A model generated the notes under the pieces. It saw nothing but the letters and a program-made list of their open reading frames with translations. It was not told where the DNA came from and searched no databases. Below, in pieces: positions 763 through 13,401 of a DNA stretch of 13,401 nucleotides. The translations under genes and the position numbers were made by a program. The stretch comes from a virus (taxonomy: Duplodnaviria > Heunggongvirae > Uroviricota > Caudoviricetes), in IMG/VR virus record IMGVR_UViG_2737471844_000004, positions 1 through 13,401 of that record, one strand, 5' to 3'. Numbering within the stretch: the stretch's first letter is position 1; each line of letters opens with the position of its first letter.

Positions 763-1244
763 GTCCGGTTTGGCTACCCGAGCAAATTTTATTAGAACAC
801 TATCAAGGTGAGTGGGAGGCCTACTTTGATAGTGTTTATCAAGCATTCCACCGCGATTTCGTTTTATCTAAACCAGTTTTTCGTGGCGTTCGATTAGGAT
901 TGAAACGTCATCCAGAATATGAAGGTAAATCAGCCACATTCTGGCATATGATTAGCACTGGAAATGTAGAAAGTGAGAGAGTGCCGGATATTCGGCGCTG
1001 CGAAAGAATTAGTTGGCCTAAGCCTGTTATAGATAATAGTACCGATACCTGTTTGAAAGTCTGGGCTGAGCCCAAAGGTAAAAATAGACGTATCCACATT
1101 TGGTTTGAGGATGAGGGATATCTGGTGGTTTTAGATGATAGAGGCGATTTTATGCTTCCATGGACAGCGTTTTATATTGAACATAACCATCAACGAAAGA
1201 AATACAATAAGAGATGGGAAAGACACAATCATAACGGTATTTGA
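753..1244 (+). CDS. Hypothetical protein, partner of the DUF3800-like gene; no family recognised
   Basis: 163-aa ORF overlapping the upstream stop. The ATG at 759 forms an ATGA overlap with the TGA at 760-762 and lies 5 nt after the SD-like GGGGGA (748-753), so 759 is the likelier start; the track start is 753. Distinctive motifs: FWHMISTG, RRCERISWPKPVI, LVVLDDRGDFMLPWTAFYIEHNHQRKKYNKRWE. AT-rich like its neighbour. Confidence 0.7.
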   Translation: MSMSPVWLPEQILLEHYQGEWEAYFDSVYQAFHRDFVLSKPVFRGVRLGLKRHPEYEGKSATFWHMISTGNVESERVPDIRRCERISWPKPVIDNSTDTCLKVWAEPKGKNRRIHIWFEDEGYLVVLDDRGDFMLPWTAFYIEHNHQRKKYNKRWERHNHNGI

Positions 1245-1253
1245 TAGTAGGCT

Positions 1254-1282
1254 GGCCGCGCCCTTCCTAGAAGGACGGGGCC
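1254..1282 (+). other. Imperfect GC-rich hairpin just after the two-gene operon (possible transcript-end or stability element)
   Basis: GGCCGCGCCCTTC-cta-GAAGGACGGGGCC: 11 paired positions, 2 mismatches, 3-nt loop, starting 10 nt after the TGA at 1242-1244. No T-run follows, so it is not a canonical intrinsic terminator. Confidence 0.3.
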
Positions 1283-1548
1283 GTAACTCCTTCTACACTT
1301 ACGCTAGAAGCTGGTAGATGAGATAGCCTAACTTTAAGTAAACCTGCCTTGCGAGTCAATTAACATTAGAAAGCGATTATGTAAATGTGGATGCTGACTT
1401 GGCGAAAAATCCTTATAAATCAATAGATAGTAGGTTTATTTTCAACTCATAGTTTTTGACTATTAATAGTATGTTATCTATCTAAAAAAAGTTTTCTGTA
1501 TTCATCGCAAAATCAATACTGCTTTAGCATTGTAGTTAGCCATCAGTT

Positions 1549-1574
1549 GCAAAAAGCCTTACCCGTAGGCTTAA
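1549..1574 (-). terminator. Weak intrinsic terminator closing the island's minus-strand transcription
   Basis: On the minus strand AAGCCT-acgggta-AGGCTT (6-bp stem; plus-strand arms 1554-1559 and 1567-1572) is followed by TTTTTG. It lies about 40 nt after the stop of the 59-aa ORF. The short stem makes it moderate at best. Confidence 0.4.
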
Positions 1575-1611
1575 CGTTTGGCTTGGCTGTAGTCTTACCG
1601 TAACGCTCCGC

Positions 1612-1791
1612 TCACCGTCGTGGCCTGTCCGGTTTCTTCCACTGATACGGCCTCACATCATCCTGCTGGTGGCGTTCCTGTTGCAGCACAACGGAAACAG
1701 GCGCTGAACACCTGTTAATTTTGCTTGCTGGTTGTTTGATTTCGGCAATGCTGCGGATCATCTCCAGCATATCGGCTTCGGTGATGGTCAT
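1612..1791 (-). CDS. Small hypothetical protein (59 aa), absent from the ORF track (below the 60-aa cutoff)
   Basis: Hand translation from the ATG at 1791: MTITEADMLEMIRSIAEIKQPASKINRCSAPVSVVLQQERHQQDDVRPYQWKKPDRPRR, stop TGA at 1614-1612. A strong SD, AAGGTG, lies 6 nt upstream of the ATG. Same strand as the island operons and followed by the hairpin at 1554-1572. Confidence 0.45.
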   Translation of the reverse strand: MTITEADMLEMIRSIAEIKQPASKINRCSAPVSVVLQQERHQQDDVRPYQWKKPDRPRR

Positions 1792-1798
1792 GATTTAC

Positions 1799-2082
1799 AC
1801 CTTAGGAAATCTTAGGGGGCTGGTTGACACTTTCCGGCTTAAGACCTTAACAAACCTTAACATCGCAGGTTGACACACTTGACACTTTTTCGCGAAAAAC
1901 CTTATCAAACCTTAGCATTTCTAAGCATGGCAACTTGACACTTTTCGCGATTTTTTTCGGCTTTTTGACGTGGTAAATCTGGCGCAAGGCCAGTAACGGC
2001 GGGGCTTACAGCGAGGTTGACACTTTTTCGCGTTCAGAGTGTAAAGTGTCAACCCGGCAAGCTGCTCAACTTGACACTTTTT
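1799..2082. repeat. Interleaved two-family repeat array; candidate packaging-specificity (cosB/pac-like) or other multi-site protein-binding region
   Basis: Family 1, TTGACAC(TTT): direct at 1824-1833, 1870-1877, 1879-1894, 1935-1949, 2017-2032, 2071-2082; inverted at 2043-2052 (AAAGTGTCAA). Three copies extend to TTGACACTTTT(T)CGCG. Family 2, ACCTTA(N), occurs in pairs phased 10 bp apart: 1799/1809 (second copy ATCTTAG), 1844/1854, 1899/1909. There is also a palindrome CTTAGcatttCTAAG at 1911-1925. The two families alternate along the 295-bp gap between the TerS-like gene and the 59-aa ORF. Confidence 0.85.
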
Positions 2083-2086
2083 GATG

Positions 2087-2614
2087 TCATTGATGGTCTG
2101 ATTTTTCCCATTCAGCTAGGGCGTTTAGCCCGGCTTCACTCCATGATTCCAGTTCATCGGCATAATCACCTGCAACATAGCAGAGTTCGCAACGCAGCAT
2201 ACTAATTGCCAGCCTGGCATTACCTCGCAAATTGTATTGTTCAAAGTAATGCTGCCCGTCGCAATCCTCAAGGCAGATAGCACCATCATCAAGAAATTGC
2301 ACTTCCCAGCCTAATTCCCCGGCTGCATCCAGCACACGCTGCTGTATGCCCTCGTCCGTTGCTGGCGCAGGAATTTTACCGTCTCTGGCCTTAACTGCTT
2401 TCCAGAACTCGCCCCACGTCATTTCCAGCGTTCTCTCTGGCCACATTTCAGAAACTGTGTCTTTTCCCTGTGCTGGTGGGCTGTTCCGCTGCTCTGTCGC
2501 TTCCACATCGATTTTTTTACCGGACATGACCACTTCGCCTTTCTCGATCCAGTCGTAAACTGTCTGGCGGCTTACGCCTTTGTGTTTGGCATATTCTGCC
2601 TTACTCATCAGCAT
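2087..2614 (-). CDS. Terminase-small-subunit-like HTH protein; candidate packaging-redirection (Rpp-like) factor
   Basis: 175-aa ORF. The N-terminus MSKAEYAKHKGVSRQTVYDWIEKGEV is a helix-turn-helix of the type at the N-terminus of lambda Nu1-like small terminases. No large terminase, portal or capsid gene follows. It is the last large gene of the operon and abuts the repeat array. An SD-like GGGTGAG precedes the ATG at 2614. Confidence 0.5.
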   Translation of the reverse strand: MLMSKAEYAKHKGVSRQTVYDWIEKGEVVMSGKKIDVEATEQRNSPPAQGKDTVSEMWPERTLEMTWGEFWKAVKARDGKIPAPATDEGIQQRVLDAAGELGWEVQFLDDGAICLEDCDGQHYFEQYNLRGNARLAISMLRCELCYVAGDYADELESWSEAGLNALAEWEKSDHQ

Positions 2615-2620
2615 TATGAC

Positions 2621-3292
2621 TCACCCTTCTTTTTCCAGTTGAGCCAGCCGCCCGGATATTTCTTCCAGTTTTTCCAGGGCTGGCTTGCAGGCCGCATCAA
2701 TAACGTCCCGGACCATTCCGGCAAGCTGTTCTTCTGCTGTCGGCGTTGTTACTTCCACGCCCGATGGTTTCCCGCCCTTATCCCAAACACCAAGCGGCAC
2801 GAGCGCAACGTGATCGATAAGAAATGGCGTACCCTCAATAAAAAAATTGTCCTCGCCCATTACATCAGGAACTTCTGCCCCACCTGAGGCACCACAAAAC
2901 ACAACCGACGGACTGGTGGATACCTCCCCTCGGGCTTTCTGGATGTAATCGATGATTTCCTGTCCGTAAATCCGGCATACGCCCCACACCTCGTCACCGC
3001 GAATATACGGCAACATGACGGTGCCAATAATGCGCGACCGTTCGCCCACGTCTTCAAGGGTTTTGCTTTCGGGATGGTCGATAATGACGGGTACTCCGGC
3101 GCAACGTTCCAGGAACTGCGGATTGAGATAAGTTTGCGGTGAACGCCAGACAAATTCTTTTTCTTCGGCGCGGTAGGCCATTCCGGTTCCTGTGATACGC
3201 AGGTTAACCAGCCACATGTTGGAAAACTGATAAGGCGACGGTAGCTGTCCGTCCCGAATCTGCTTCGCCGCCTCAATTTCTGTTAAAAGCAT
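2621..3292 (-). CDS. DUF2213/XkdF-like prohead protease or scaffold-like protein (morphogenesis-related candidate)
   Basis: 223-aa ORF. The pattern VPVIIDHP ... IIGTV ... GDEVWGVCRIY ... EVSTSPSVVF ... IDHVALVPLGVWDKGG resembles the DUF2213 layout as I recall it (H..., lS.GY, NH.ALV..GRAG). The C-terminus LEKLEEISGRLAQLEKEG looks coiled-coil. The family call is from recollection only. Confidence 0.45.
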   Translation of the reverse strand: MLLTEIEAAKQIRDGQLPSPYQFSNMWLVNLRITGTGMAYRAEEKEFVWRSPQTYLNPQFLERCAGVPVIIDHPESKTLEDVGERSRIIGTVMLPYIRGDEVWGVCRIYGQEIIDYIQKARGEVSTSPSVVFCGASGGAEVPDVMGEDNFFIEGTPFLIDHVALVPLGVWDKGGKPSGVEVTTPTAEEQLAGMVRDVIDAACKPALEKLEEISGRLAQLEKEG

Positions 3293-3316
3293 AATGTTAT
3301 CCGGTTATAAGCAATA

Positions 3317-3340
3317 AGCCCCGCCAAATCCGGCAGGGCT
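3317..3340 (-). promoter_or_regulatory. Intergenic hairpin between the 192-aa and 223-aa genes (possible attenuator or processing site)
   Basis: Plus strand AGCCCCGCC-aaatcc-GGCAGGGCT: 9-bp stem with one mismatch. On the minus strand it is followed by TTATTGCTTAT, only partly T-rich. Confidence 0.3.
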
Positions 3341-3356
3341 GAACTCAGCACGTTTT

Positions 3357-3935
3357 TCATGCCCCCGCGAGGCTTGCAACGTTAATTTTGACCAGGCGAC
3401 GGGGAGGGATTTTGAAGGCGTTCAGCCAGACGTTCGGATCTCCCTGATATTCAGTAATACGACGACCAGCTTCATCCATTCTTACGGTTTTACCCAAATG
3501 GCCCGGCGTGTTTTCCACGGCCCACTGAGCACTTTCCTGAGCAGCCTTGTAAATCTGATCTTCCAGCACCGCCAGCGTTGCAGAATCTGAAACGGAACGA
3601 ATATCCACATCACTGAATTTTTTAGCCAGCTTCTGTGCGCCAATTAATGCACGTTTGCGGTAATCCATCGACTTTTCACCAGCAAACGGGGCCGGAGCGC
3701 GACGGCCCATATTGCTGTATGCGGAATCCGCTTTAGCCTGGGCTTCTGCCAGTGAGGATTCATCTTCGACTGACGCGACGATGTTTTGATTAGCGTTATC
3801 CTCTTTTATGAAATCCTGTGCGGGGATCGCATTCAGAATTTCGATAATCTCCTGCGGAGTGCTTCCCTGCGACTCTGACAGAGCGTTAACCACCTCCATC
3901 AGTTTTAATCGCAAATCTTCTTTGCTTGCTGGCAT
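3357..3935 (-). CDS. Hypothetical protein (192 aa) of the morphogenesis/packaging operon
   Basis: The track ORF runs 3357-3944 from a GTG. The ATG at 3935 (MPASKEDLRLKLMEV...) has the SD GAGGTG 6-7 nt upstream and is preferred. The N-terminal half is acidic and helical-looking. No family recognised. Confidence 0.65.
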   Translation of the reverse strand: MPASKEDLRLKLMEVVNALSESQGSTPQEIIEILNAIPAQDFIKEDNANQNIVASVEDESSLAEAQAKADSAYSNMGRRAPAPFAGEKSMDYRKRALIGAQKLAKKFSDVDIRSVSDSATLAVLEDQIYKAAQESAQWAVENTPGHLGKTVRMDEAGRRITEYQGDPNVWLNAFKIPPRRLVKINVASLAGA

Positions 3936-3974
3936 TTTTACCACCTCTCTTTTTTCACCAAAAAATCACGACCA

Positions 3975-4148
3975 TCAGGCCGGACGTTCTACGGGATAAA
4001 GCGCCCGCTGCATTAAACGCCGGGCGACCTCATGAATGCTCGGAGCAATCCCCAGCGGAGAATTGCGGCGTTCCTCGTCCTGGATGCGCTGTAATGCTTC
4101 AATCTGATCACGAGCGAGTAAAACGGGTTTCACGCTGGCTTTTCTCAT
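3975..4148 (-). CDS. Small ribbon-helix-helix-like protein, first gene of the morphogenesis/packaging operon
   Basis: The track ORF is 3975-4172. The ATG at 4148 (MRKASVKPVLLARDQIEALQRIQDEE...SIHEVARRLMQRAL) lies 7 nt after AGGAGA; an alternative ATG is at 4154. The strand/helix/helix pattern suggests a CopG/Arc-type fold by eye. Confidence 0.5.
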   Translation of the reverse strand: MRKASVKPVLLARDQIEALQRIQDEERRNSPLGIAPSIHEVARRLMQRALYPVERPA

Positions 4149-4275
4149 AGTCATATCTCCTGAACAAAACAATGATTATGATTGCACAAACTGAAATGAC
4201 GATCTACATCATTGCAATTTATGAAACAATAACGCATGATGATCGCGTTCTTCCCATTGACTTCAATCACCTGCA

Positions 4276-4314
4276 AAAATAAAACCCGCAACACTTCTGG
4301 CTGCGGGTTTTTTA
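4276..4314. terminator. Bidirectional intrinsic terminator
   Basis: AAAAATAAA-ACCCGCA-acacttctggc-TGCGGGT-TTTTTT: 7-bp GC-rich stem (4284-4290 / 4302-4308), with an A-run upstream and a T-run downstream, so a U-tract follows on either strand. Confidence 0.7.
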
Positions 4315-4321
4315 CTGGCAC

Positions 4322-4345
4322 AAAAAAGCCGGGAAAAATCCCGGC
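4322..4345 (-). terminator. Intrinsic terminator right after the PerC-like gene
   Basis: Minus strand GCCGGGA-tttt-TCCCGGC followed by TTTTTT (plus-strand A-run 4322-4327). It begins 6 nt after the stop at 4351 and sits in tandem with the 4276-4314 terminator. Confidence 0.75.
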
Positions 4346-4350
4346 CTCCG

Positions 4351-4638
4351 TCACTGACTGCAATTTTTCGATCCAGGGTATTTCCTGAATGCCTTACCAT
4401 TGGGCTGATGTAATCCCATCCCGGCATGTGCCCGGCTGATGGTTTCGCGCATCTCCCCGAAATTATCCTGCCGTGCTGGTGGGCGTGCTGCCTTGCGGAT
4501 ACATTCCGCGCGACGTTTTGCCGCCTGTTCCCGTGCCTTGTCATCATTCGCCAGCATGATGACCTCAGCCCACCGCGCCGCCGCTCTCCGGTACAGACCA
4601 CGCGCTTCCAGTGCTTCCGCTTTGCTGTCGTGAATCAT
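4351..4638 (-). CDS. PerC-family-like transcriptional regulator
   Basis: 95-aa ORF. 'AEALEARGLYRRAAARWAEVI' matches the conserved LE..G.YRRAA.RW core I associate with PerC/Pch proteins. Its ATG (4638-4636) overlaps the upstream stop as ATGA. Confidence 0.6.
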   Translation of the reverse strand: MIHDSKAEALEARGLYRRAAARWAEVIMLANDDKAREQAAKRRAECIRKAARPPARQDNFGEMRETISRAHAGMGLHQPNGKAFRKYPGSKNCSQ

Positions 4639-5183
4639 GCGCCTGTTTTCTCCTTTGCTGCCCGGCGCTGACGTTTGCGCTTCTCATTCAGCGCCACCAG
4701 CCGCGTTTCTGCGTCCTGTTGTTCCTGTGGTGTCACCTCGCCGCACGGCTGGCCTTTCAGGTCGTAGCGTACCCCACCAGCCATTAAGGCGCGGTAATAG
4801 CGCGGACACTGCGCATAAGATGCCAGCGTCGCACGTAATGCCCCTGGCCCGAATGCCAGCCCCCTGACGGCGAGATCCTGCATCAGGTCGTCGAATATCC
4901 CCACCTTAAGCGGCTTCGGTGCTTCCCGGCTGAATAATTCAGGCCACAACTCAGTGAGGCGGTTAATGCGCCTGCGGTTTTTTCGCTGCCGTTTGGTCAT
5001 ATGCCGCCACGGTGTCGCCCCTGTGGGCTTCTGCTGCGCTTTCTGGTTACCGGGCATCACTTTATGCGCCGATGTGGTTTTATCCTGCTGCTGCTGCTGC
5101 TGCTGCTGCTGCGCCGCCTGCGTCGTTTTCTGCGGCGTGCCGTAAATGCCTTTCGGTTTTCTGTTAATAGTCAGCTTAGTCAT
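4635..5183 (-). CDS. ProQ/FinO-domain RNA-binding protein with an N-terminal poly-Q tract
   Basis: LTELWPELFSREAPKPLKVGIFDDLMQDL ... LRATLASYAQCPRYYRALMAGGVRYDLKGQPCGEV aligns by eye with E. coli ProQ ([22 protein letters not shown] ... [35 protein letters not shown]). The track ORF extends to 5231. The ATG at 5183 (MTKLTINRK) has GGGG 6 nt upstream and is preferred. Confidence 0.75.
   Translation of the reverse strand: MTKLTINRKPKGIYGTPQKTTQAAQQQQQQQQQDKTTSAHKVMPGNQKAQQKPTGATPWRHMTKRQRKNRRRINRLTELWPELFSREAPKPLKVGIFDDLMQDLAVRGLAFGPGALRATLASYAQCPRYYRALMAGGVRYDLKGQPCGEVTPQEQQDAETRLVALNEKRKRQRRAAKEKTGA
5085..5111. repeat. Perfect trinucleotide repeat (CTG)9 on the plus strand = (CAG)9 encoding Q9
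   Basis: Nine uninterrupted CTG units counted directly. In frame, giving QQQQQQQQQ in the ProQ/FinO-like protein. Confidence 0.95.
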
Positions 5184-5236
5184 GCTTTGCCCCATCGTTT
5201 TTACTGATTGTTTCATATCCGGTACTTTCATCTTCT

Positions 5237-5522
5237 GGGTAGAGGGGTAGACGGCGGGTAGATAACAAAAAATAGTCCTCTACCCACTTAACTTAATGAA
5301 AAAAAACAACTTTCACACATTAGGTAGAGGGGTAGACCGTAAAATAGAAAAGTTTGAAACTTACTTTCTTACAATCTGTGTTTTCCTCTCGCTGTATAAA
5401 AAGTTTTTTGAGCGGGGATGTTGTCTACCCCTCTACCCACTTCTCTGAAAGCCTTGTGCTACGAGGGATTCAGCGGGTAGACAATAAAAAATCACCATCT
5501 ACCCTGTGTCTACCCATCTACC
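5237..5522. repeat. Iteron-type replication origin (candidate ori) just downstream of the primase/helicase gene
   Basis: Core GGGTAGA(C): direct at 5237, 5245, 5256, 5323 (GGTAGA), 5330, 5475; inverted (G)TCTACCC at 5279, 5423, 5431, 5498, 5508, 5517. The 16-mer GGGTAGAGGGGTAGAC (5237-5252) has an exact reverse complement at 5423-5438, and its 15-mer recurs at 5323-5337. AT-rich blocks at 5286-5320 and 5338-5410 lie between the iteron clusters. Confidence 0.75.
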
Positions 5523-5539
5523 TGTTACGGGTATTACTC

Positions 5540-7288
5540 TTATAAAAATTCCTCGGTTCTCTCCGTTTGTATAACGTTGGTTTGTATTCGTCCTTTAAAA
5601 CCTCTTGTCAGGTATTCAGCCCCATATTCTCTTGCTGCTGACTTCATGGCCTTACCAAAATCACCGACACTTAATATTTCTTCTTCCCCCATATACTCCA
5701 TAAAGGCGAGATATAGTCTGTACAGGCTTGTACGCGGATTAAGATCAGTTAATCTCTTACCGCCTCCCATCATCATCCCATGCGGTTCATCAAGAAATGC
5801 AAGCGCCGCACATAACCCAATGACAGGATCAGTTTCCTGTTTTATTTTCAGAGCTTCGGCACCGTCGCGCTGCTCCAACAATAATTCCCGTGCTTTTTCT
5901 GGATCGGAAAAGTTAGCCAGTAATCGACGAATAATGACAGGTATTTCCGCCGCTATCTTTTGCGGTAACTCTTTATCCTTTTCGGTCTCCCTTACAATAT
6001 TATCGAACCGAAAAATTACACGTCGACGCGCAACGCCTCCGGCCCGTTCGGTGAATGTCATCGGCACGTTATTTGTTGCCAGCACGACGGACCTGATAAT
6101 TGTTGTGAAACGCTTTTCATATTTCGGGTTAATTTCAACTGGATCTCCACCCGTTATTTTTTTGATGCCGGATCCTTCACCTGTATATTTCGGCTGGTCT
6201 GCCAGGACAATAAGACGACTTCCGACAACCTGCGCACGCCCGCCAGCATCATCAAGCGATGTCATTTCAGCGCTTACCGTGTTCTGTTTCCCTGCCAGAA
6301 GGGTGGCTATGTGCGTGATTGTGCTCTTGCCGCTCCCGCCTTCCCCTGTGGCCTCAATAAACATCTGCCAGTCGTACCGGTTCGCCATAATCATGTACAG
6401 CGCGGCGCATATACGCATCATCTTTCGCGGGTCTTTTCCTGCGGCGTGATCAAGCCATTTATGAAAGTTTGGCGCGTTGTCGCGGATGTTCTCCCCTGGT
6501 ACTGGTGGCGTGTACTCAATGCCGTTATGCGTGGTGATCCAGTTATCCGGCGAGTGCGGGGAAAATTCGCCAGTTTTCATGTCAAGCACGCCATTAGAGA
6601 ACGGCAATAAATCACCTGACGGTTCCCCCATTGGCCTGGCCATAACTTTTAAAGCATCCACAGCATTACTTATTGCTCTCCGACTAAACGATGTTCCGTT
6701 TTCTTCGTAAATAGCCACCATTTCACGACTAAGATCCAGTGTGCTTACCGGAACCCAAAAATCATCGCGCCAGACGTGGACAACCTCACTCTCCTGATTC
6801 ATTGCTACATCCTGAAATCGTTCAGCTAAAAGTTTTGCCCTTTGGCTGTCCGCCATTCTGGAAAGAGATATTTTGTGTTTTTTCTCGGTCCTTCCTGACA
6901 GAATTTCTCCGCGCTCAGCCTGTTCGCGGATCCGTTGCAGGTAGTCGCGCCAGTTCTCCGGTTCCTGGTCGGTGATGCCTTTGTATAATTTCGCCTCCTG
7001 TACGCCAGCCAGCGCCAGCTTTTCAGCGATAGTATTGATCTGGATTGGCTCTATCTCCCCCGCGATATAGACACGCGCAAAACGGCGTTTCTCGTCAATA
7101 ATGCGGATATTCGCCAGGTCTGCCAGTTGCTTTGGCCCCAGGTAAACAGGAGGCACGTTATCGCCGTGTTTTCGTCCTTCACTTTCAATCCAGTGTTGAG
7201 CATGGGCGTAAGCATCCGTCCCGGCAAAAATGATTACCTCAGTGAATTTATCCTTCGGCTGATATTTTAGACTCGGTGCGTTTTTCAC
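5540..7288 (-). CDS. P4-family phage/plasmid primase-helicase (D5-type NTPase), replication initiator
   Basis: 582-aa ORF. Walker A GEGGSGKS is encoded at 6346-6323; a Walker-B-like LIVLADQP lies downstream. The overall pattern resembles the C-terminal domain of P4 alpha / D5-family primases. GTG start at 7288 with the SD GGAGG 6 nt upstream, overlapping the upstream stop as GTGA. An iteron ori follows. Confidence 0.85.
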   Translation of the reverse strand: MKNAPSLKYQPKDKFTEVIIFAGTDAYAHAQHWIESEGRKHGDNVPPVYLGPKQLADLANIRIIDEKRRFARVYIAGEIEPIQINTIAEKLALAGVQEAKLYKGITDQEPENWRDYLQRIREQAERGEILSGRTEKKHKISLSRMADSQRAKLLAERFQDVAMNQESEVVHVWRDDFWVPVSTLDLSREMVAIYEENGTSFSRRAISNAVDALKVMARPMGEPSGDLLPFSNGVLDMKTGEFSPHSPDNWITTHNGIEYTPPVPGENIRDNAPNFHKWLDHAAGKDPRKMMRICAALYMIMANRYDWQMFIEATGEGGSGKSTITHIATLLAGKQNTVSAEMTSLDDAGGRAQVVGSRLIVLADQPKYTGEGSGIKKITGGDPVEINPKYEKRFTTIIRSVVLATNNVPMTFTERAGGVARRRVIFRFDNIVRETEKDKELPQKIAAEIPVIIRRLLANFSDPEKARELLLEQRDGAEALKIKQETDPVIGLCAALAFLDEPHGMMMGGGKRLTDLNPRTSLYRLYLAFMEYMGEEEILSVGDFGKAMKSAAREYGAEYLTRGFKGRIQTNVIQTERTEEFL

Positions 7289-7575
7289 TTCTTACCTCCC
7301 GCAACCAACATTGCCCGGATTTTTTTTATATTCGTGGCTGCACGTCTCGCCACTGCCTGTTGTTTGTTTTCCACCAGAATAAAATCACGATCAAACTGAC
7401 GGCGCGGCATTACGCAGTCATATTCGTAAGCCTCACGGCGGTAGGTGATATTGCCTGGCGTAACGTGACGAATAACCACCCGTCCCCCGCGTCTGGTGTC
7501 CCGGAAAATATCACCGGGGCGGATTTCAGGCCGAGAGAGGCCGCTGGCAGTAAAGCCAGAATTTTTCTTTTTCAT
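7285..7575 (-). CDS. Small basic protein, possibly DUF4222-like
   Basis: 96-aa ORF. 'IRPGDIFRDTRRGGRVVIRHVTPGNITYRREAYEYDCVMPRRQFDRDFILV' resembles the DUF4222 pattern I recall from genes just upstream of primases in P4-like prophages. Confidence 0.45.
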   Translation of the reverse strand: MKKKNSGFTASGLSRPEIRPGDIFRDTRRGGRVVIRHVTPGNITYRREAYEYDCVMPRRQFDRDFILVENKQQAVARRAATNIKKIRAMLVAGGKK

Positions 7576-7579
7576 GGTT

Positions 7580-7780
7580 TTATTTTCCTGTCAGCAGTTC
7601 CGGTTTTATTTCCGCACGAATACAAAGTTCAGAAAAAAATTCAGGAGAACCAACAATCTCATTACTTTTCAGTCGGCATTGTGATTTCACTTTCCCTTTA
7701 TCCAGGTAAACCAGTACGCGTCCGGTGAAATCATCTGGCACATTAAGCACTACGGGTACATGCACTTCATGATTATGCAT
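7580..7780 (-). CDS. Hypothetical protein with one copy of a ~45-aa 'D-FTG' repeat domain
   Basis: 66-aa ORF. Its ATG overlaps the upstream stop as ATGCATAA. The domain FTGRVLVYLDKGKVKSQCRLKSNEIVGSPEFFSELC aligns with both repeats of the 7999-8364 product. Confidence 0.6.
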   Translation of the reverse strand: MHNHEVHVPVVLNVPDDFTGRVLVYLDKGKVKSQCRLKSNEIVGSPEFFSELCIRAEIKPELLTGK

Positions 7781-8006
7781 GGCTTACATCCTCCGTGAAT
7801 TTTCTTCTGTAACGCGCCTCTGCCACATATTCCGCATAGTCCGACGCAATACTAAGAATCATTTCACCCTCTGACTTGTAGCCACTGGTATTGATAAGAA
7901 AATATGCAGCTTTCATCATGTCAGCAACGCTCAACAATGCGCCCGATGTATCTTCCGGTGCGCCATCAAATTCCCGTTTCAGGGAATTAAAACGATCATC
8001 ACGCAT
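7773..8006 (-). CDS. Hypothetical small acidic protein
   Basis: 77-aa ORF, overlapping both neighbours by 8 nt. No family recognised. Confidence 0.55.
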   Translation of the reverse strand: MRDDRFNSLKREFDGAPEDTSGALLSVADMMKAAYFLINTSGYKSEGEMILSIASDYAEYVAEARYRRKFTEDVSHA

Positions 8007-8364
8007 GTTTACCCCCCTGAATGACCTGATAACCGCAACTGGTCAGCAACTCGATAAATTCCGGCAGTGTGCCGAAACAGCAATCATCACGCAGCCGTTC
8101 GCAGGATACCTCGACGCCGTTTTCGTAGTGACTCACCATACGTCCGGTAAAATGCAGATCATCATCGTGATGGCTCGTTGACGGCTTAATCAGTCGCGCA
8201 CGTTCCGCCAGTTCCAGCAATGCTTCAACGCTTCCGGCAATTGCACCATCCGGCAGGTGGTAATTACGCACTATGCGCCCGTTCTCCACATGGACCAGTA
8301 GCTGCCCGGTAAATTTCTCGTCAAACTGAATGCTGTTAAGGTCAGAAATTGACAGGTTATGCAT
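7999..8364 (-). CDS. Hypothetical protein with two tandem 'D-FTG' repeat domains
   Basis: The track ORF extends to 8382. The ATG at 8364 (MHNLSISD...) overlaps the upstream stop as ATGCATAA and is preferred. Repeats: FTGQLLVHVENGRIVRNYHLPDGAIAGSVEALLEL and FTGRMVSHYENGVEVSCERLRDDCCFGTLPEFIELL. Confidence 0.65.
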   Translation of the reverse strand: MHNLSISDLNSIQFDEKFTGQLLVHVENGRIVRNYHLPDGAIAGSVEALLELAERARLIKPSTSHHDDDLHFTGRMVSHYENGVEVSCERLRDDCCFGTLPEFIELLTSCGYQVIQGGKHA

Positions 8365-8581
8365 GGTGCACCTCCTGCACATCAGCCATGATAATTTTTC
8401 CGGCCTTATCCAGTGCCTGATCGGCTTTTAGCTGCACAAATGCTAAATAATGGGAGATGCATTCTGATTCTCTGGCTGCGTGTTTATGCGCCACACCAGC
8501 GATAGCAGAAATCTCAATAAGTGAATCCATCAGCGTTTTGATAGCGTCTACCGCTGCATCAGGCCATGTTGCATTACACAT
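8357..8581 (-). CDS. Hypothetical small protein
   Basis: 74-aa ORF. Its ATG at 8581 overlaps the upstream stop as ATGTGTAA. No family recognised. Confidence 0.55.
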   Translation of the reverse strand: MCNATWPDAAVDAIKTLMDSLIEISAIAGVAHKHAARESECISHYLAFVQLKADQALDKAGKIIMADVQEVHHA

Positions 8582-8939
8582 GTTCCACCTCCTGGCGAAT
8601 ACGGGCGGCGAATACCATCACGCAGCCATCAGGAGATTGCTGACGTGCTTCCTGTTCGCTGGTGGCCTCGATGTGAATTACGCGCGGTTGTGCCGTGCTC
8701 AGGGCGATAAAACGCCAGATAAAATTGTTCTCGCATTTCTGAATAAACAGCGTGTTTTCTTCGCGCCCTTTCCATGTTGCCGAGATATAGCCCATGTCAT
8801 TGAGCATCTCGCAGGCATCAACCAGCGTATCAGCAGCTACGTGTACAGTGTTTTTACCGTCAGCTATGCAATCACGGTGCACCGCCAGGAAGGTGTATAT
8901 AAATTTAGGGTGAGTTTGGGTATGCTGTGTTCCAGCCAT
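8574..8939 (-). CDS. First gene of the replication operon; possibly Icd-like (host cell division inhibitor-like)
   Basis: This is the 3' part of the 510-aa track ORF. An internal ATG at 8939 (MAGTQHTQTHPKFIYTFLAV..., 121 aa) has the SD GAGG 8 nt upstream and lies about 90 nt downstream of a good sigma70 promoter. 'HPKFIYTFLAV' resembles N-termini of proteins annotated Icd-like in P4-like prophages; this is weak recollection. Confidence 0.5.
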   Translation of the reverse strand: MAGTQHTQTHPKFIYTFLAVHRDCIADGKNTVHVAADTLVDACEMLNDMGYISATWKGREENTLFIQKCENNFIWRFIALSTAQPRVIHIEATSEQEARQQSPDGCVMVFAARIRQEVEHV

Positions 8940-8969
8940 AATCGTTACCTCATTTAACGGTTTGGTTAG

Positions 8970-9003
8970 ACGCCCCGCTACTGCCGCAAACAGTTCGGGG
9001 CGT
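8970..9003 (-). promoter_or_regulatory. Leader hairpin in the 5' UTR of the replication operon
   Basis: ACGCCCCG (8970-8977) and CGGGGCGT (8996-9003) form an 8-bp GC-rich stem with an 18-nt loop, between the predicted TSS (~9030) and the ATG at 8939. No U-tract on either strand. Confidence 0.35.
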
Positions 9004-9028
9004 TGTCGTTTACATCCTCTTACTGAGG

Positions 9029-9104
9029 TGTGATTTAAATTAAATTTAACTGAATCACAGGTCAAGTATTTTTTGTGATTCTTTTTTGTGTATACTGAAT
9101 CACA
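9029..9104. promoter_or_regulatory. Twin palindromic operators in the divergent switch region
   Basis: O1 is TGTGATT-N17-AATCACA (9029-9059). O2 is TGTGATTC-N15-GAATCACA (9074-9104). Both span 31 bp and are offset by exactly 45 bp; CTGAATCACA is repeated at 9050 and 9095. O1 covers the minus-strand promoter. O2 covers the putative plus-strand -10 TATACT (9091-9096). Confidence 0.6.
9037..9065 (-). promoter_or_regulatory. Sigma70-type promoter for the minus-strand replication operon
   Basis: On the minus strand: -35 TTGACC (9065-9060), a 17-nt spacer, then -10 TAATTT (9042-9037). It overlaps operator O1. Confidence 0.5.
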
Positions 9105-9126
9105 TCTTTTGTTTAGGAGAATGCAC

Positions 9127-9432
9127 ATGGCAAAAAACACTATCAACGACAAATCAAAACAGATTTCAATTCGTATCCCACATGATGCTTTTGAAGGCAT
9201 GGAATCCGTAAAACTGGACGGTGAAAGCAACGCCGGATTCATAGTAACCGCCATGCGCGGTGAGATCGCCCGCCGCCAGGCAGAAGGAAGCGGAGAAAAT
9301 CCCCTGGTTTCTTCGCTCGATGCGCTGGCGCAGGTGGAAAAAATCGGAGTCAAAGCTGCCGAGGAGATCGGGCAGCTCGTCACCGTCGCACGTGAAGAAC
9401 TCCAGCGCCGCAAGGCCAAAGAATCAGAATAA
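9127..9432 (+). CDS. Small DNA-binding regulator (ribbon-helix-helix-like N-terminus, coiled-coil C-terminus); candidate switch repressor
   Basis: The track ORF starts at 9088. The ATG at 9127 (MAKNTINDKSKQISIRIPHDAFEGMESVKLD...) lies 6 nt after AGGAGA (9115-9120). 'QISIRIPHDAFEGM' looks like an RHH beta-strand plus helix. It is divergent from the replication operon, with the operators in between. Confidence 0.65.
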   Translation: MAKNTINDKSKQISIRIPHDAFEGMESVKLDGESNAGFIVTAMRGEIARRQAEGSGENPLVSSLDALAQVEKIGVKAAEEIGQLVTVAREELQRRKAKESE

Positions 9433-9489
9433 TAACTATCATCGCCGTGGTGTGAGGAACTCCGGCGCATTGCTTTACAGGTACACAGA

Positions 9490-9684
9490 ATGACCAACAA
9501 AGAATCAACCAATACACCATCACCGGCACGGAAAAGACGGCGCAGAAAGATAGAGCACGAATCAGAAAGATTCGCGCCATGTGCTTTTGCCCTTGAGCAA
9601 TTCCTTAAAGAGTACAGGCGCACAAAAATGGGATCGCATACCTGGAAAACATCGCGGCATGGCAATGTTAAAGAGCATGAATAG
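9490..9684 (+). CDS. Possible small basic protein (very uncertain)
   Basis: 64-aa ORF downstream of the RHH-like gene (MTNKESTNTPSPARKRRRRKIEHE...). There is no convincing SD, and it lies antisense to the long minus-strand frame. Confidence 0.2.
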   Translation: MTNKESTNTPSPARKRRRRKIEHESERFAPCAFALEQFLKEYRRTKMGSHTWKTSRHGNVKEHE

Positions 9685-10106
9685 CCCACCAGCAAGCCAG
9701 CACACTGATCACATTGCCCACCAGCCGCAAATCTGGCATTGTTGGCAATGTGTTCAAGTGTGTAGCTTTCCCACTGGTGGCCCTCTGCAGTCGCCTTTGT
9801 TTTATCCAGAACGAAATCAGACATCAGATTGATCAGCACCTGGTGACCTGACAAAATCGCATCAGTCACGCCACCAGCAAAATTTTTTGCTTTCCGGACA
9901 GCGTGGCCAACGGCATTTTGCAGCGAAATATTCTGCATTTCTGGCGTGCTGTAGTAACGGTGATCAGTGCCTTCACTCTGTGCGACCACAACGCTATAAT
10001 CTGCCTCGTAGACAGTAAGCAATATGGCGCAGTAGGCTATTCGTTCACAAAGGCGCTCCGGCAACGGGGCGCTTTCTCTTTTTGTAACGGTCAGAGCGTT
10101 ACACAT
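9685..10106 (-). CDS. Coding-looking 5' segment coupled to the antirepressor gene; 3' end unresolved (no stop until 8574)
   Basis: The ATG at 10106 overlaps the upstream stop as ATGTGTAA. The first ~135 residues (MCNALTVTKRESAPLPERL...YTLEHIANNARFAAGG) have protein-like composition, after which the frame turns Ser/Cys/Arg-rich. The lower coordinate is a judgement, not a stop codon. Confidence 0.3.
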
Positions 10107-10899
10107 GGCTGTTTTCCTCCATGCGACGGGCTAACCAACGCTGCGAAAGGCGAATTAATTCAGCTTTCCGCTGGTGGTAGTCCTGGCCTAACTCAATCAG
10201 CGTGATATTGCTCTGCTCAAGGTAAGAAAGGTGCTCAAGCTGCAACACGCTCATGTGGTCGCGTGGTTCACCTGTAATGCCGTTCGCCTGCGCCCACTGT
10301 TTTGCAGTCATGCCACCCAGCACGATACGCGCCAGCATGTTCGCTTCCGTGGTGTAGTGGTGCTGGAGTGTGTTTTTACCCAGTTCAGCCCGGTACGCCT
10401 CCAGCGCGGCACACATTGGCTTAAAGTAGCTGGCAACTGTGATACGGGCTTTCAGTTCCCGGCGTAACGCTGCGGAACGTACAGGCGCAACCTTGTGTAG
10501 CTCCTCCTCGCATTTGATAAAGTACTGACGAACGGCGCGCCCCTGTTCGGTGCGCTCGACCATCGCCAGTTCTTTCGCCATGTTGATAGTGCTCAGGTAG
10601 TCGTGCTCTACACGTTGGCGAGATTTTGCGCTCACCGGATTGGGGGAGGTCAAATTTTCTACGAATTCAAAATCCACGCCCTTTTTAAATCCGTACTCAT
10701 CAATGCGTCCTTTAATCCAAGTTGTGAAATCACGCTTCACACCCAGCGCCTTATGCAACGCTCTGGCGCTAACAATATTGGTTTCACGCCCGCCAATAAC
10801 GCCGGAAATAACCGGGATAATTTCGCCGAAATTTTGTTGGCTCTGGTTTTCAGGCCGAACGAAGCCCTGCCCCTGTACGGGCGTTTTTCGCAGTTTCAT
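10099..10899 (-). CDS. Phage antirepressor-type protein (AntA/Rha-like N-terminal domain)
   Basis: 266-aa ORF. 'IVSARALHKALGVKRDFTTWIKGRIDEYGFKKGVDFEF ... DYLSTINMAKELAMVERTEQGRAVRQYFIKCEEEL' matches the AntA/AntB antirepressor pattern as I recall it (ARdLh..Lgv..dFs.Wik.rI..y.f..g.Df ... dy.l.l.mAKel.Mve....G...R.YFI..E). The SD AGGAG lies 5 nt upstream. Confidence 0.75.
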   Translation of the reverse strand: MKLRKTPVQGQGFVRPENQSQQNFGEIIPVISGVIGGRETNIVSARALHKALGVKRDFTTWIKGRIDEYGFKKGVDFEFVENLTSPNPVSAKSRQRVEHDYLSTINMAKELAMVERTEQGRAVRQYFIKCEEELHKVAPVRSAALRRELKARITVASYFKPMCAALEAYRAELGKNTLQHHYTTEANMLARIVLGGMTAKQWAQANGITGEPRDHMSVLQLEHLSYLEQSNITLIELGQDYHQRKAELIRLSQRWLARRMEENSHV

Positions 10900-10977
10900 A
10901 AAAACTCCTGCTATCGAATTAAGTTACTTTTTATTTGCTGGTGGATAGCTGGGGCTTCTGGCCCCGTAGCTGTTTTA

Positions 10978-11196
10978 TCAGGCTGATGTGTTTCGGCGTT
11001 CTTCCAGCCAGCGATTAACCTCTACCGCATCGAATGCAGTGCTTTTCTCACCCAGTTTGATGGGCTTAGGCATCTTCCCGCTACGCACCCAACGATCGAG
11101 CGTTGATAAGCTGGTACCCAGCAATTCAGCCAGGCGATAGCGGCGGATATAGCCAGTTGCAGGGATTGCGGTTTGAAGTATTGGTTGGTTTTTCAT
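10978..11196 (-). CDS. alpA: AlpA-family transcriptional regulator/excisionase-like HTH protein
   Basis: 'YIRRYRLAELLGTSLSTLDRWVRSGKMPKPIKLGEKSTAFDAVEVNRWLEERR' fits the AlpA (Phage_AlpA) pattern. The track ORF extends to 11289, but that upstream part looks non-coding. Likely starts are the ATG at 11196 or 11205. Confidence 0.8.
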   Translation of the reverse strand: MKNQPILQTAIPATGYIRRYRLAELLGTSLSTLDRWVRSGKMPKPIKLGEKSTAFDAVEVNRWLEERRNTSA

Positions 11197-11308
11197 ATGC
11201 CCCATTACCTTTGTTGTTGGTTTGTGATTCGTAATAGGGGCATTAAATAACAAATGAAATGATGTGTGTGTGAGTTTTAGAAAAAACACTGTGACTTTTC
11301 TTATTTCA

Positions 11309-12091
11309 CTATCTAAAACGCTCTCGCCAGCTTTTCCAAGTGTTCTTATCTGGTTGTGGGATTACAATGCCTTTTTGAGCACCTATTTGTGCAATTTTTT
11401 TATTTAACTTGTTAGGCGGCAAAGATATTATCTCATTGTCTGTTAATCCGGCAATTCTTAATAATCCATATATCATTTTAAATTGATGTATTGTTAATCT
11501 TGGTAACTTGTGATTTTCTTTTTTTATAGTGTTGTTTATGGAGTAAATTGGAAATCCATTTGTTATTGATTTATAAAGGTTGTCAATGTGCTCTCTGGTT
11601 ATTAATAATGAATCAGGTGTAATCTTAATGTTGCCGCTTGTTTTTGCATGGCATGAAAAAATAAATGTGGGATTCGCAGTGCGACGTGAAAGCGGTATGG
11701 ATGTATTCATAGAGATAGTTTTGTTTCTTACTATAGTCTCTTGAATATCAAAAACTCCAGAAACCTTTGCCTCAAAAATAACACCATTTTCTTTTATTTC
11801 ATCACTATATTCATGAATAATTATGCCAAGAGAGGAAATTTCTTTTTTGATGAGAAAAGAAATAAAATCAATATAGTCTTCATCCTTTGGCCATGTAAAA
11901 TCACGATAACCAAAATACCCCTCACAGTAAGCATTTTTTATTTTTGTGGCAAAATTAATTCTGTTAATATCCTGCCAATGCCATAAATCATCTATCTCAC
12001 ATTCTAAAATTTGAGCTGCTCTATCTAAAGAGCAGAATTCTAATGGAGGTAATTGTTTTTTTTGCCATATTGTTTCATTAATATTTGTCAT
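11309..12091 (-). CDS. AT-rich orphan protein (260 aa) between int and alpA; function unknown
   Basis: Complete ORF, about 33% G+C in a hand-counted 60-nt sample versus about 50% or more in the island core. No family recognised. The N-terminal 'LEFCSLDRAAQILECEIDDLWHWQ' and C-terminal 'LTDNEIISLPPNKLNKKIAQIGAQKG' look loosely HTH-like. Confidence 0.7.
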   Translation of the reverse strand: MTNINETIWQKKQLPPLEFCSLDRAAQILECEIDDLWHWQDINRINFATKIKNAYCEGYFGYRDFTWPKDEDYIDFISFLIKKEISSLGIIIHEYSDEIKENGVIFEAKVSGVFDIQETIVRNKTISMNTSIPLSRRTANPTFIFSCHAKTSGNIKITPDSLLITREHIDNLYKSITNGFPIYSINNTIKKENHKLPRLTIHQFKMIYGLLRIAGLTDNEIISLPPNKLNKKIAQIGAQKGIVIPQPDKNTWKSWRERFR

Positions 12092-12147
12092 GATTGCACT
12101 ACCGTTATGAAAAAATATATTCGTTAATGAATTAGCCTTAATGTCTA

Positions 12148-13401
12148 TTATTTATTAGATTGCGTGATGTCAGAACATATCATGTTTTCTAAATTCACCA
12201 GCAAATCAGTCCACTGTGCCAGCGCCGCTTTGCGCTCATCAAAATATTGATGGCGGTTATAAATGCCCTCTACGCCTTTTATGCGGTGGTTAAGGCATCG
12301 TTCAGCAACGATCGGGTCAACTCCCAATGCTGCTAAATGTGTTCGTGCTGTTCGCCGGAAGTCGTGAATTGTAAAGTTGGGGACGTTCGGCATTTCTGCT
12401 CTGACTTTTGCCAATGCAACAGGAAGGGTGCTTTCCTGGATGTGAGGGATCATTCTGTGCTGCATTTTTCTGGCAGGTAATACCCATGCGCTATTGCATG
12501 AAAATGTGTGCAATTCTCGCAACCATTCTATGGTCGCTGGTGGTAATGGTATGTCGATAGCATCGCCATTTTTAGTTCGTTGTTCTGGTAGATGCCAAAT
12601 CGCGCCATCTAAGTCGAATTCATCCCACCTGGCGGCGCATAACTCCATTTTTCTGACACACAATGCTAAGAGCAACTTAAAGGTTAATTCGTTCTGGCGG
12701 CTGAATCCTTTGGCTTTACGCATGGCCTGAAAAAATTGGATTAATTCGTCACGGTTCAGCCAGCGATCACGAGATAATTCTTTCCCACCAGCATCTGATA
12801 CTTCAAAAGCTGAGCAGGGGTTAACCTCCAAAGCAAGGCGTTTAATACCGTAGTCAAATATTCGACGTGTCCACCGAAGAACGTCAGTAGCAATTGTTGG
12901 AGCGCCTCTATCAACAATGCTTTTAAGCATGGCATCAATATGGCGTGGTTTTACATCTTCAACCTTCATGTGGCCTATGGCAGGATTTATGTCTTTATCA
13001 ATGCGCCTGCGGAGAATATCTGGGTGTTTCCATCGGGGAAGTATTTGCCGTGCAAAGTATTCGGCGGCAAGTTCAGAAACATGCAGCGCGTTTTTTTCAG
13101 CTTCTATTTTTGCCAGTGCTTCGGCTTTACGCTGCTGTTTTTCTGCGGCTACGTCATATCCCAAAGCAACTCGTGCGGAAAGTTCTTTTGCCAGTTCCCT
13201 GGCTTTTGATAACGATAATTCAGAATATGAACCAATAAGCATGGCACGAGATTTTCCTGCCAGTTTATATCGAAACCGCCATGTCGGGGATCTATCCACC
13301 TCTCTATACCGGAGATATAGCCCACCACCATCAGCACGACCTTCGAAATGTTCTCCGGCTTTTATCCATGCGCGGATCTGCATATCTGTGAGTTTTGGCA
13401 T
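12148..13401 (-). CDS. int: P4-type tyrosine integrase (DUF4102-like N-terminal domain)
   Basis: 417-aa ORF starting at the window edge. The N-terminus 'LTDMQIRAWIKAGEHFEGRADGGGLYLRYR...WRFRYKLAGK' is typical of P4-family integrases. Catalytic-type motifs are present: CVRKMEL (Arg), HDFRRTARTH (His-x-x-Arg), LNH, GIYNRHQY (Tyr). Confidence 0.9.
   Translation of the reverse strand: MPKLTDMQIRAWIKAGEHFEGRADGGGLYLRYREVDRSPTWRFRYKLAGKSRAMLIGSYSELSLSKARELAKELSARVALGYDVAAEKQQRKAEALAKIEAEKNALHVSELAAEYFARQILPRWKHPDILRRRIDKDINPAIGHMKVEDVKPRHIDAMLKSIVDRGAPTIATDVLRWTRRIFDYGIKRLALEVNPCSAFEVSDAGGKELSRDRWLNRDELIQFFQAMRKAKGFSRQNELTFKLLLALCVRKMELCAARWDEFDLDGAIWHLPEQRTKNGDAIDIPLPPATIEWLRELHTFSCNSAWVLPARKMQHRMIPHIQESTLPVALAKVRAEMPNVPNFTIHDFRRTARTHLAALGVDPIVAERCLNHRIKGVEGIYNRHQYFDERKAALAQWTDLLVNLENMICSDITQSNK

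Follow-up and report, generated by a model that had tools for sequence, protein, structure and literature searches.

What do the four short, overlapping genes encode that lie between an Icd-like gene and the DUF4222 and primase genes in the early operon of an Escherichia coli phage satellite, and what might their products do for the element that carries them? The satellite, a thrW-type element of the kind represented by P4 and the phage-inducible chromosomal islands (PICIs), makes up the 13,401-nucleotide stretch analyzed here (positions 1 to 13,401 of IMG/VR record IMGVR_UViG_2737471844_000004; henceforth, the window), and the products of the four minus-strand genes, which we designate H1, F12, H2, and F3, are all labeled “hypothetical protein” in RefSeq. 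An earlier note on this DNA described the region as a tandem duplication of a two-gene module that carries a novel domain of about 45 amino acids, the FTG domain, and suggested early functions, helper interference among them. We find that the domain is indeed repeated but belongs to a catalogued family, that the region is not a duplicated gene pair, and that F12 and F3 might be antirepressors through which the satellite acts on resident prophages.

The FTG domain occurs three times, twice in F12 (repeats R1 and R2) and once in F3, and the similarity among the copies is significant in every pairing by formal alignment statistics: R1 and F3 align with a BLASTP E value of 9e-9 (shuffle z score of 14), R1 and R2 with an E value of 6e-7 (z score of 9), and R2 and F3 with an E value of 5e-4 (z score of 5.4, the observed score being reached in 2 of 2000 shuffles). 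The earlier note thus counted the copies correctly, and its open reading frame (ORF) coordinates for all four genes hold as well. There is no long DNA repeat in the region, and the duplication of the domain is therefore old. Each copy spans about 45 residues and consists of a beta-hairpin plus a helix; in the AlphaFold2 (AF2) model of F3, which has a mean predicted local distance difference test score (pLDDT) of 86.2, the hairpin covers residues 21 to 37 and the helix covers residues 46 to 55.

Far from being novel, as had been claimed, the domain is already present in two family collections. Both F12 and F3 fall into phrog_340 of the PHROGs, where the function is listed as unknown, and homologs carry the Pfam domain PF27490, named “Rem”; among those annotated with it are P0022 (85% identical to F12), P0023, P0135, P0141, P0185, P0186, and P0215. 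Our own Pfam and NCBIfam searches returned no domain match for H1, F12, H2, or F3, but the Pfam release that we used predates PF27490 and leaves Rem itself unmatched, so that for the FTG proteins the absence of a match is misleading. Profile comparisons lead to the same family: when aligned by hhalign, a profile of 42 FTG family members matches the Rem alignment (A5) over 45 columns with a probability of 96.9% (E value of 2e-10) and matches Rem of E. coli K-12 alone with a probability of 95.3%, and hmmsearch with a hidden Markov model (HMM) of the FTG domain ranks Rem first among 191 ORFs of the Qin prophage (E value of 7.7e-9). By these comparisons, the FTG domain very probably belongs to the Rem family.

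An exhaustive profile search of 1.84 billion representatives yielded about 100 clusters of the domain, mostly single-domain proteins of 60 to 90 amino acids, with named sources in Escherichia, Salmonella, Erwinia, Yersinia, Cronobacter, and Hafnia, and tblastn searches with F12 and F3 found no match among 50,697 GenBank phage records. Long repeat proteins were also hit by the profile (the MORN-like P0168 and the low-complexity P0119), but these matches are weak and spread over multiple stretches, and we take them to reflect a resemblance between beta-hairpins rather than homology.

Rem, the only characterized member of the family, is the Qin-prophage antirepressor of DicA; its ectopic expression increases expression from dicBp 165-fold, and the filamentation that results is Qin dependent (PMC10448788). 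It was identified by PSI-BLAST searches started from two other antirepressors, GfoA of Gifsy-1 and FsoA of Fels-1 (PMC10448788). The Gifsy and Fels-1 antirepressors bind short, noncleavable repressors (DicA and RacR are of this type) and remove them from DNA; the Gifsy antirepressor-repressor complexes have A2B2 composition, and some of these antirepressors act across heteroimmune prophages, as FsoA does from the left operon of Fels-1 (PMC3121763). The fusions and neighbors of FTG domains fit repressor antagonism. In P0135, an FTG/Rem domain lies C-terminal to a Bro-N domain (Pfam records both Bro-N and Rem for this protein); the C terminus of the ORF6N protein STM2616 of Gifsy-1 resembles the FTG domain (hhalign probability of 84%); and one FTG gene adjoins an ORF6N gene in a prophage of Hafnia, while a second belongs to the early-left operon of a different prophage.

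The homology of the FTG domain to Rem, its links with antirepressor-type domains, and its location in the slot that holds epsilon in P4 together lead us to propose that F12 and F3 are satellite-encoded antirepressors of DicA/Gifsy-type prophage repressors that have been diversified by domain duplication. We put the probability of this reading, including its target and its benefit to the satellite, at about 45%. The window itself is in line with this reading: neither the Pfam search nor the protein survey revealed an XRE/DicA-type repressor encoded there. Once the early operon is on, F12 and F3 would be made and would inactivate, by binding, the DicA/GfoR/RacR-type repressors of lambdoid prophages resident in the cell, such that a prophage of this kind, as a potential helper, would be derepressed in the way that P2 is derepressed by P4 epsilon from the same slot. 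Possession of three diverged FTG domains would broaden the range of repressors recognized, the tandem F12 could serve as a covalent (built-in) dimer, and H1 is probably a partner or adaptor of the FTG proteins, given that it is fused with FTG domains elsewhere. With respect to the early functions suggested previously, the early-operon location stands and the evidence points toward manipulation of a helper phage, though this role is a proposal that draws on sequence and analogy.

Alternatively, the FTG proteins could inactivate a regulator of the satellite itself, such as its YlcI/YnfO-family protein, and a positive-feedback loop would then keep the early operon permanently on. The YlcI/YnfO gene is divergent from the FTG operon, and Rem, too, targets the repressor of its own prophage; however, Rem and the Gifsy antirepressors are known to target repressors of the XRE-type DicA/GfoR group, of which the window has none, and the YlcI/YnfO protein is only a candidate repressor. 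Moreover, the reported master activator in characterized E. coli PICIs is AlpA (PMC11773190). We regard this self-directed switch as distinctly unlikely.

Several observations weigh against casting F12 and F3 as antirepressors of prophages. Their function would be transferred from one characterized relative at about 22% identity, and the link between that relative and DicA is genetic. In the reverse direction, an HMM of Rem, thin because it was built from three sequences, ranks F3 and F12 first and second of 191 window ORFs, but weakly (E values of 0.013 and 0.05), and the FTG profile aligns only weakly by hhalign (probability of 22%, E value of 1e-3) with STM2621.1n of Gifsy-1, which we presume to be the GfoA ORF because it lies downstream of the dinI homolog. 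The model of F3 retrieves no similar structure from the PDB or BFVD, and epsilon has no sequence similarity to H1, F12, H2, or F3, with BLASTP E values of >0.3 for all four. Finally, the tight synteny in which an FTG gene is followed by DUF4222 and the primase could equally indicate a role in replication, and a related Icd-like operon, that of E. coli ECOR61, acts as a cell-death module.

If they were replication accessory factors, the FTG proteins would work with DUF4222 and the primase or helicase. In E. coli, Erwinia, and Yersinia, and also in a satellite from a metagenome, an FTG gene lies directly upstream of the DUF4222-primase pair (DUF4222 is a conserved downstream neighbor of FTG in all of the satellite loci that we examined), and one family member, P0164, is fused to a DnaG-type CHC2 zinc ribbon. 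This same block, however, remains unchanged while the replicase is swapped: among islands that encode an identical Icd-like protein (L017 to L026), the gene after the run from Icd-like through H1, F12, H2, and F3 to DUF4222 encodes a D5_N/DUF5906 primase in some cases and an AAA_25 RepA-like helicase (about 470 amino acids) in others, and the replicase is thus exchanged as a module directly after DUF4222. Because family members also occur in phage contexts without an adjacent primase, and because the sole functional datum for the family is repressor antagonism, we regard a replication role as very unlikely. As for DUF4222 itself, a single scan of the genome contigs with it as query returned only 2 loci. 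By eye, the N terminus of P4 orf151 (L014, 7440-7895; PGEIYRSAGFPDVAVVG...) resembles the DUF4222 motif of the window protein (RPGDIFRDTRRGGRVVI...), and orf151 may be its counterpart, although the BLASTP match extends over only 7 residues.

The cell-death alternative derives from ECOR61, in which an Icd-like gene, two small ORFs immediately downstream of it (61 and 63 amino acids), and a primase are among six linked genes, all of which were required for the cell death triggered by the phage accessory protein orf24; suppressor transposon insertions mapped to the Icd-like gene and to each of the two small ORFs (Silas et al., bioRxiv 10.1101/2023.04.06.535777). By analogy, the small proteins of the window could be parts of an Icd-like-dependent module for cell death or superinfection exclusion in which the FTG and helical proteins act as sensors or regulators of an Icd-like effector; detection of an incoming phage protein by the operon would lead to a halt in cell division or to death of the cell. 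The first small ORF of ECOR61 overlaps the Icd-like gene by about 8 nucleotides according to the listed coordinates, a layout resembling that of the window operon, and, compared by layout and size, the two systems are alike in having an Icd-like gene followed by overlapping small ORFs and a primase, which in ECOR61 act as one functional unit. The ECOR61 ORFs are nevertheless unlike the small proteins of the window in length, and their reported function is abortive defense rather than derepression. Furthermore, no PADLOC model matches H1, F12, H2, or F3, and FTG/Rem proteins are encoded as well at sites distant from any Icd-like gene (in the nin region of Qin, beside lysis genes, and in the left operons of prophages). 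We therefore consider such a module unlikely, if with an appreciable chance of being correct, and were it correct, the small proteins would help to explain how phage proteins are sensed.

That the FTG genes are paralogous does not make the region a duplicated pair, as the earlier note had it. H1 and H2 produce no BLASTP alignment at an E value of ≤100 and a shuffle z score of -0.9; they are unrelated, such that there is no evidence for duplication of a two-gene unit, and gene order differs among islands. Neither the H1 nor the H2 profile finds anything meaningful among PDB sequences, and H1 has no match in Pfam, NCBIfam, or PADLOC. The helices of H2 are seen only in a low-confidence model, that of P0002, a natural fusion of F12 and H2, which we set aside as a guide to domain packing or to the fold of H2 because its mean pLDDT is 50.6.

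The small genes between Icd-like and DUF4222 are exchangeable cassettes. In Erwinia and Yersinia, the Icd-like gene is followed by one FTG gene, DUF4222, and the primase, with no helical genes, whereas E. coli O157:H7 TW14359 has a single-domain FTG gene, a 154-amino-acid fusion of H1 and H2, and an unrelated 77-amino-acid protein (X) before DUF4222 and a RepA helicase. A uropathogenic E. coli (UPEC) strain has the order Icd-like, Y, H1, F12, H2, X, DUF4222, and another E. coli island (L024) passes from H1 and F12 directly to DUF4222, without H2 and F3. X (77 amino acids) and Y (76 amino acids), located at 2771-3004 and 3795-4025 in L015 and at 2771-3004 in L016, have no Pfam match and are unrelated to the other proteins of the slot, so that at least five unrelated cassette families circulate there. 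Nucleotide identity between the window and the UPEC island is correspondingly uneven, at 97.8% for F12, 86.9% for H1, 69.7% for H2, and 59.6% for DUF4222. Of 5426 complete E. coli genomes, 1010 contain at least part of the 1010-bp block, but only 155 contain 80% or more of it.

Recombination extends to the interiors of genes. The protein collection contains many in-frame hybrids, with examples joining the R1 leader to the R2 body (P0047), the F12 head to the F3 body (P0065), AntA to R2 (P0053), and H1 to the F12 tail (P0037), together with internal deletions (P0034, P0041, and P0046). A 240-amino-acid protein of a metagenomic satellite (P0181), encoded in the same slot before DUF4222 and the primase, has the composition FTG-H1-FTG, its middle portion matching H1 with a BLASTP E value of 5e-10. 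Based on this fusion and on the common fusions of F12 with H2, the four proteins probably work together. We also note that the locus encoding the FTG-H1-FTG protein (L027; contig SRR31861024_114879, 5217-8295) has tail-type genes (Dit_like, Pam3_gp18, E217_GP41, and Apex) right after its DUF927 primase, which is unusual for a small AlpA/primase element.

It is highly improbable that H1 with F12 and H2 with F3 constitute two toxin-antitoxin-like pairs. The genes are small, overlapping, and carried on a mobile element, as such pairs would be, but searches of Pfam, NCBIfam, and PADLOC return no defense, toxin, or antitoxin family for any of the four proteins. The pairing is not conserved either, given that FTG stands alone in Erwinia and Yersinia, precedes H1-H2 in O157:H7, and occurs without H2 and F3 in L024, and in-frame fusions of the supposed partners are common.

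The anatomy of the operon is given in Table 1. Its first five genes, from Icd-like to F3, form a translationally coupled string joined by 8-nucleotide overlaps of start and stop codons, beginning with the Icd-like stop and the H1 start; a 4-nucleotide gap then separates F3 from DUF4222, and the P4-family primase is the final gene. The ratio of nonsynonymous to synonymous substitution rates (dN/dS), from informative comparisons with other islands, is 0.09 to 0.35 for the four small ORFs (0.35 for H1 and 0.19 for H2), which indicates that they are real coding genes. No Rfam family occurs in the window, and internal promoters and terminators are not above chance between 7000 and 10200.

Table 1. 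Positions of the early-operon genes, the FTG domains, and the junction elements in the window
Feature	Coordinates	Strand	Evidence
P4-family primase (D5_N / DUF5906), final gene of operon	5540..7288	-	Pfam and NCBIfam searches
DUF4222 gene	7285..7575	-	Pfam PF13973, E 3.9e-19
F3, 66 aa, single Rem-family (FTG) domain	7580..7780	-	PHROG 340, E 1.7e-20; BLASTP vs F12, E 9e-9
H2, 77 aa, predicted helical	7773..8006	-	PHROG 24341, E 1.2e-47; also C-terminal half of PHROG 2512
F12, 121 aa, two Rem-family (FTG) domains	7999..8364	-	PHROG 340, E 4e-30, two matched stretches; FTG HMM, E 7e-41
F12 domain R2	~8002-8181	-	Internal repeat, E 6e-7
F12 domain R1	~8173-8364	-	Internal repeat, E 6e-7
H1, 74 aa	8357..8581	-	PHROG 5146, E 1.7e-48
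Icd-like gene, 121 aa per RefSeq	8574..8939	-	NCBIfam NF033153 phage_ICD_like, E 5.8e-23; RefSeq annotation in E. coli JNU
Junction cassette	7773-7793, 8357-8377, 8574-8594; variant ~7999-8019	-	Direct-repeat family D1; junction sequences
G6 tract (C6 on + strand), also ribosome-binding site for H2	8012..8017	-	Junction sequence, allele comparison
YlcI/YnfO-family gene, divergent from Icd-like operon	9088-9432	+	

The overlaps also account for two further features that the earlier note had connected with pairs of helical and FTG genes. The 10-mer CCATGCATAA, expected 0.07 times by chance, is found, as described, at exactly 7773-7782 and 8357-8366, but the junction to which it belongs is not restricted to such pairs. 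A Shine-Dalgarno sequence of the GGAGG type is embedded in the end of each upstream gene and is followed by CATGnnTAA/TGA, and the next ATG overlaps the stop codon by 8 nucleotides; the 10-mer and the (H/S)HA endings, the latter offered as a mark of the helical proteins, are by-products of this arrangement and not protein features. The cassette joins four junctions in series, namely, Icd-like to H1 (...QEVEHV*), H1 to F12 (...QEVHHA*), F12 to H2 (...QGGKHA*), and H2 to F3 (...EDVSHA*), and because the same overlap is present at the first and third of these, the cassette serves to couple genes throughout this string and is not a signature of helical-FTG pairs.

At the F12/H2 junction, the tract of G residues varies in length. 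The window and most other loci have G6, but in CP117668 the tract is G5, which produces an in-frame F12-H2 fusion of 196 amino acids, and in Escherichia ruysiae it is G9, which adds one Gly. Fused F12-H2 alleles are common in the protein collection (P0002, with 156 members; P0006, with 105; and P0012, with 46), and L022 has a 196-amino-acid gene at the F12-H2 position. The tract may act as a slip-strand switch between separate and fused products. In a broader version of the antirepressor proposal, which we offer as speculative and somewhat doubtful, E. coli PICI-type satellites would carry in the epsilon slot a recombining array of Rem-like antirepressor domains and helical partners that induces heteroimmune resident lambdoid prophages with DicA/RacR/Gifsy-type repressors, its target range being retuned by duplication, repeat-to-repeat recombination, and the slippery G tract. 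On this version, a satellite would activate its helpers itself instead of merely awaiting them.

The surroundings of the operon are those of the satellite group. Bases 7200 to 9000 share 99.9% identity with an E. coli JNU island that adjoins tRNA-Thr and proA and contains genes for an integrase, an AlpA-type helix-turn-helix (HTH) protein, AntA, Icd-like, DUF4222, primase, ProQ/FinO, and PerC. Read from right to left, the minus strand of the window encodes a tyrosine integrase, an unknown 260-amino-acid protein, an AlpA-type HTH protein, an AntA/AntB antirepressor-family protein, Icd-like, H1, F12, H2, F3, DUF4222, and the primase, followed by ProQ/FinO, PerC, and DUF2213. Between AntA and the Icd-like C terminus, a minus-strand frame remains free of stops for 510 codons (8574-10106), starting at an ATG with an 8-nucleotide overlap with the stop of AntA (10099-10106) and crossing the annotated YlcI/YnfO gene in antisense. 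Its counterpart is open for 252 to 340 codons in other islands, and one genome calls a separate 144-amino-acid ORF after AntA; the frame may represent a single long protein, a pair of genes, or a shadow frame. The ProQ/FinO-domain protein (4635-5231, minus strand) has an N-terminal extension with an unbroken run of ten glutamines. At the cargo end, two overlapping plus-strand genes (1-762 and 753-1244) match the PADLOC candidate defense system PDC-M04, with E values of 8e-98 for PDC-M04A, which has a DUF3800 domain, and 9e-74 for PDC-M04B. E. coli JNU, the closest genome, has an orc1/cdc6-family gene in place of PDC-M04, which suggests a swappable defense hotspot.

In the usual model of PICIs, the helper phage induces the satellite, and active derepression of a helper by its satellite is, to our knowledge, known so far mainly for P4 epsilon. 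The FTG domain had been catalogued and one member had an assigned role, though the family is barely studied; the presence of Rem-family domains at the epsilon position in PICI/P4-like satellites, their tandem and recombining copies, and their helical partner proteins in satellites are apparently undescribed in the literature searched. If F12 and F3 are antirepressors, a group of E. coli satellites that is widespread, in view of the number of complete genomes with at least part of the block, would be equipped to wake resident prophages, with a bearing on prophage induction, the transfer of Shiga-toxin and other prophages, and the spread of satellites. The Rem family would also gain a second biological setting, as well as natural variants (single, tandem, fused, and recombinant) with which to map specificity.

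Three known systems frame the proposal. Rem (b1561 of the cryptic prophage Qin in E. coli K-12) and the FTG proteins are small, are encoded on mobile elements of Enterobacterales, and have in common an NG beta-hairpin and then a helix ending in AG[YFW]. They differ in that Rem, at a sequence identity of ~22%, has an additional N-terminal half-repeat and lies beside hokD in the nin/Q region of a lambdoid prophage, whereas the FTG copies, which include a tandem two-domain protein, lie in the early operon of a satellite. GfoA, GftA, and FsoA are likewise small proteins that inactivate short, noncleavable repressors by binding (Lemire et al. 2011, PMC3121763), and FsoA is encoded in an early-left operon, as are some FTG family members. 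GfoA and GftA are LexA controlled, but the window has no LexA box above chance (4 one-mismatch matches to the pattern versus 3.7 expected, none upstream of the operon).

Epsilon of P4 is a satellite protein that derepresses a helper prophage, and its likeness to the FTG proteins is one of position and proposed role, not of family: the FTG HMM has no match in P4, the H1 profile matches epsilon with a probability of 2%, and none of H1, F12, H2, or F3 is similar to P4 orf151 or orf106. The P4 annotation places the cI-ORF at 8168-8584, epsilon (“helper derepression protein”) at 7888-8175, and orf151 at 7440-7895, and the order runs from the cI-ORF, which is Icd-like, through epsilon, orf151, and orf106 to alpha, with 8-nucleotide overlaps shared at the first two junctions. 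Epsilon and the FTG genes thus occupy the same slot, between an Icd-like ORF and a primase and joined to their neighbors by overlapping start and stop codons.

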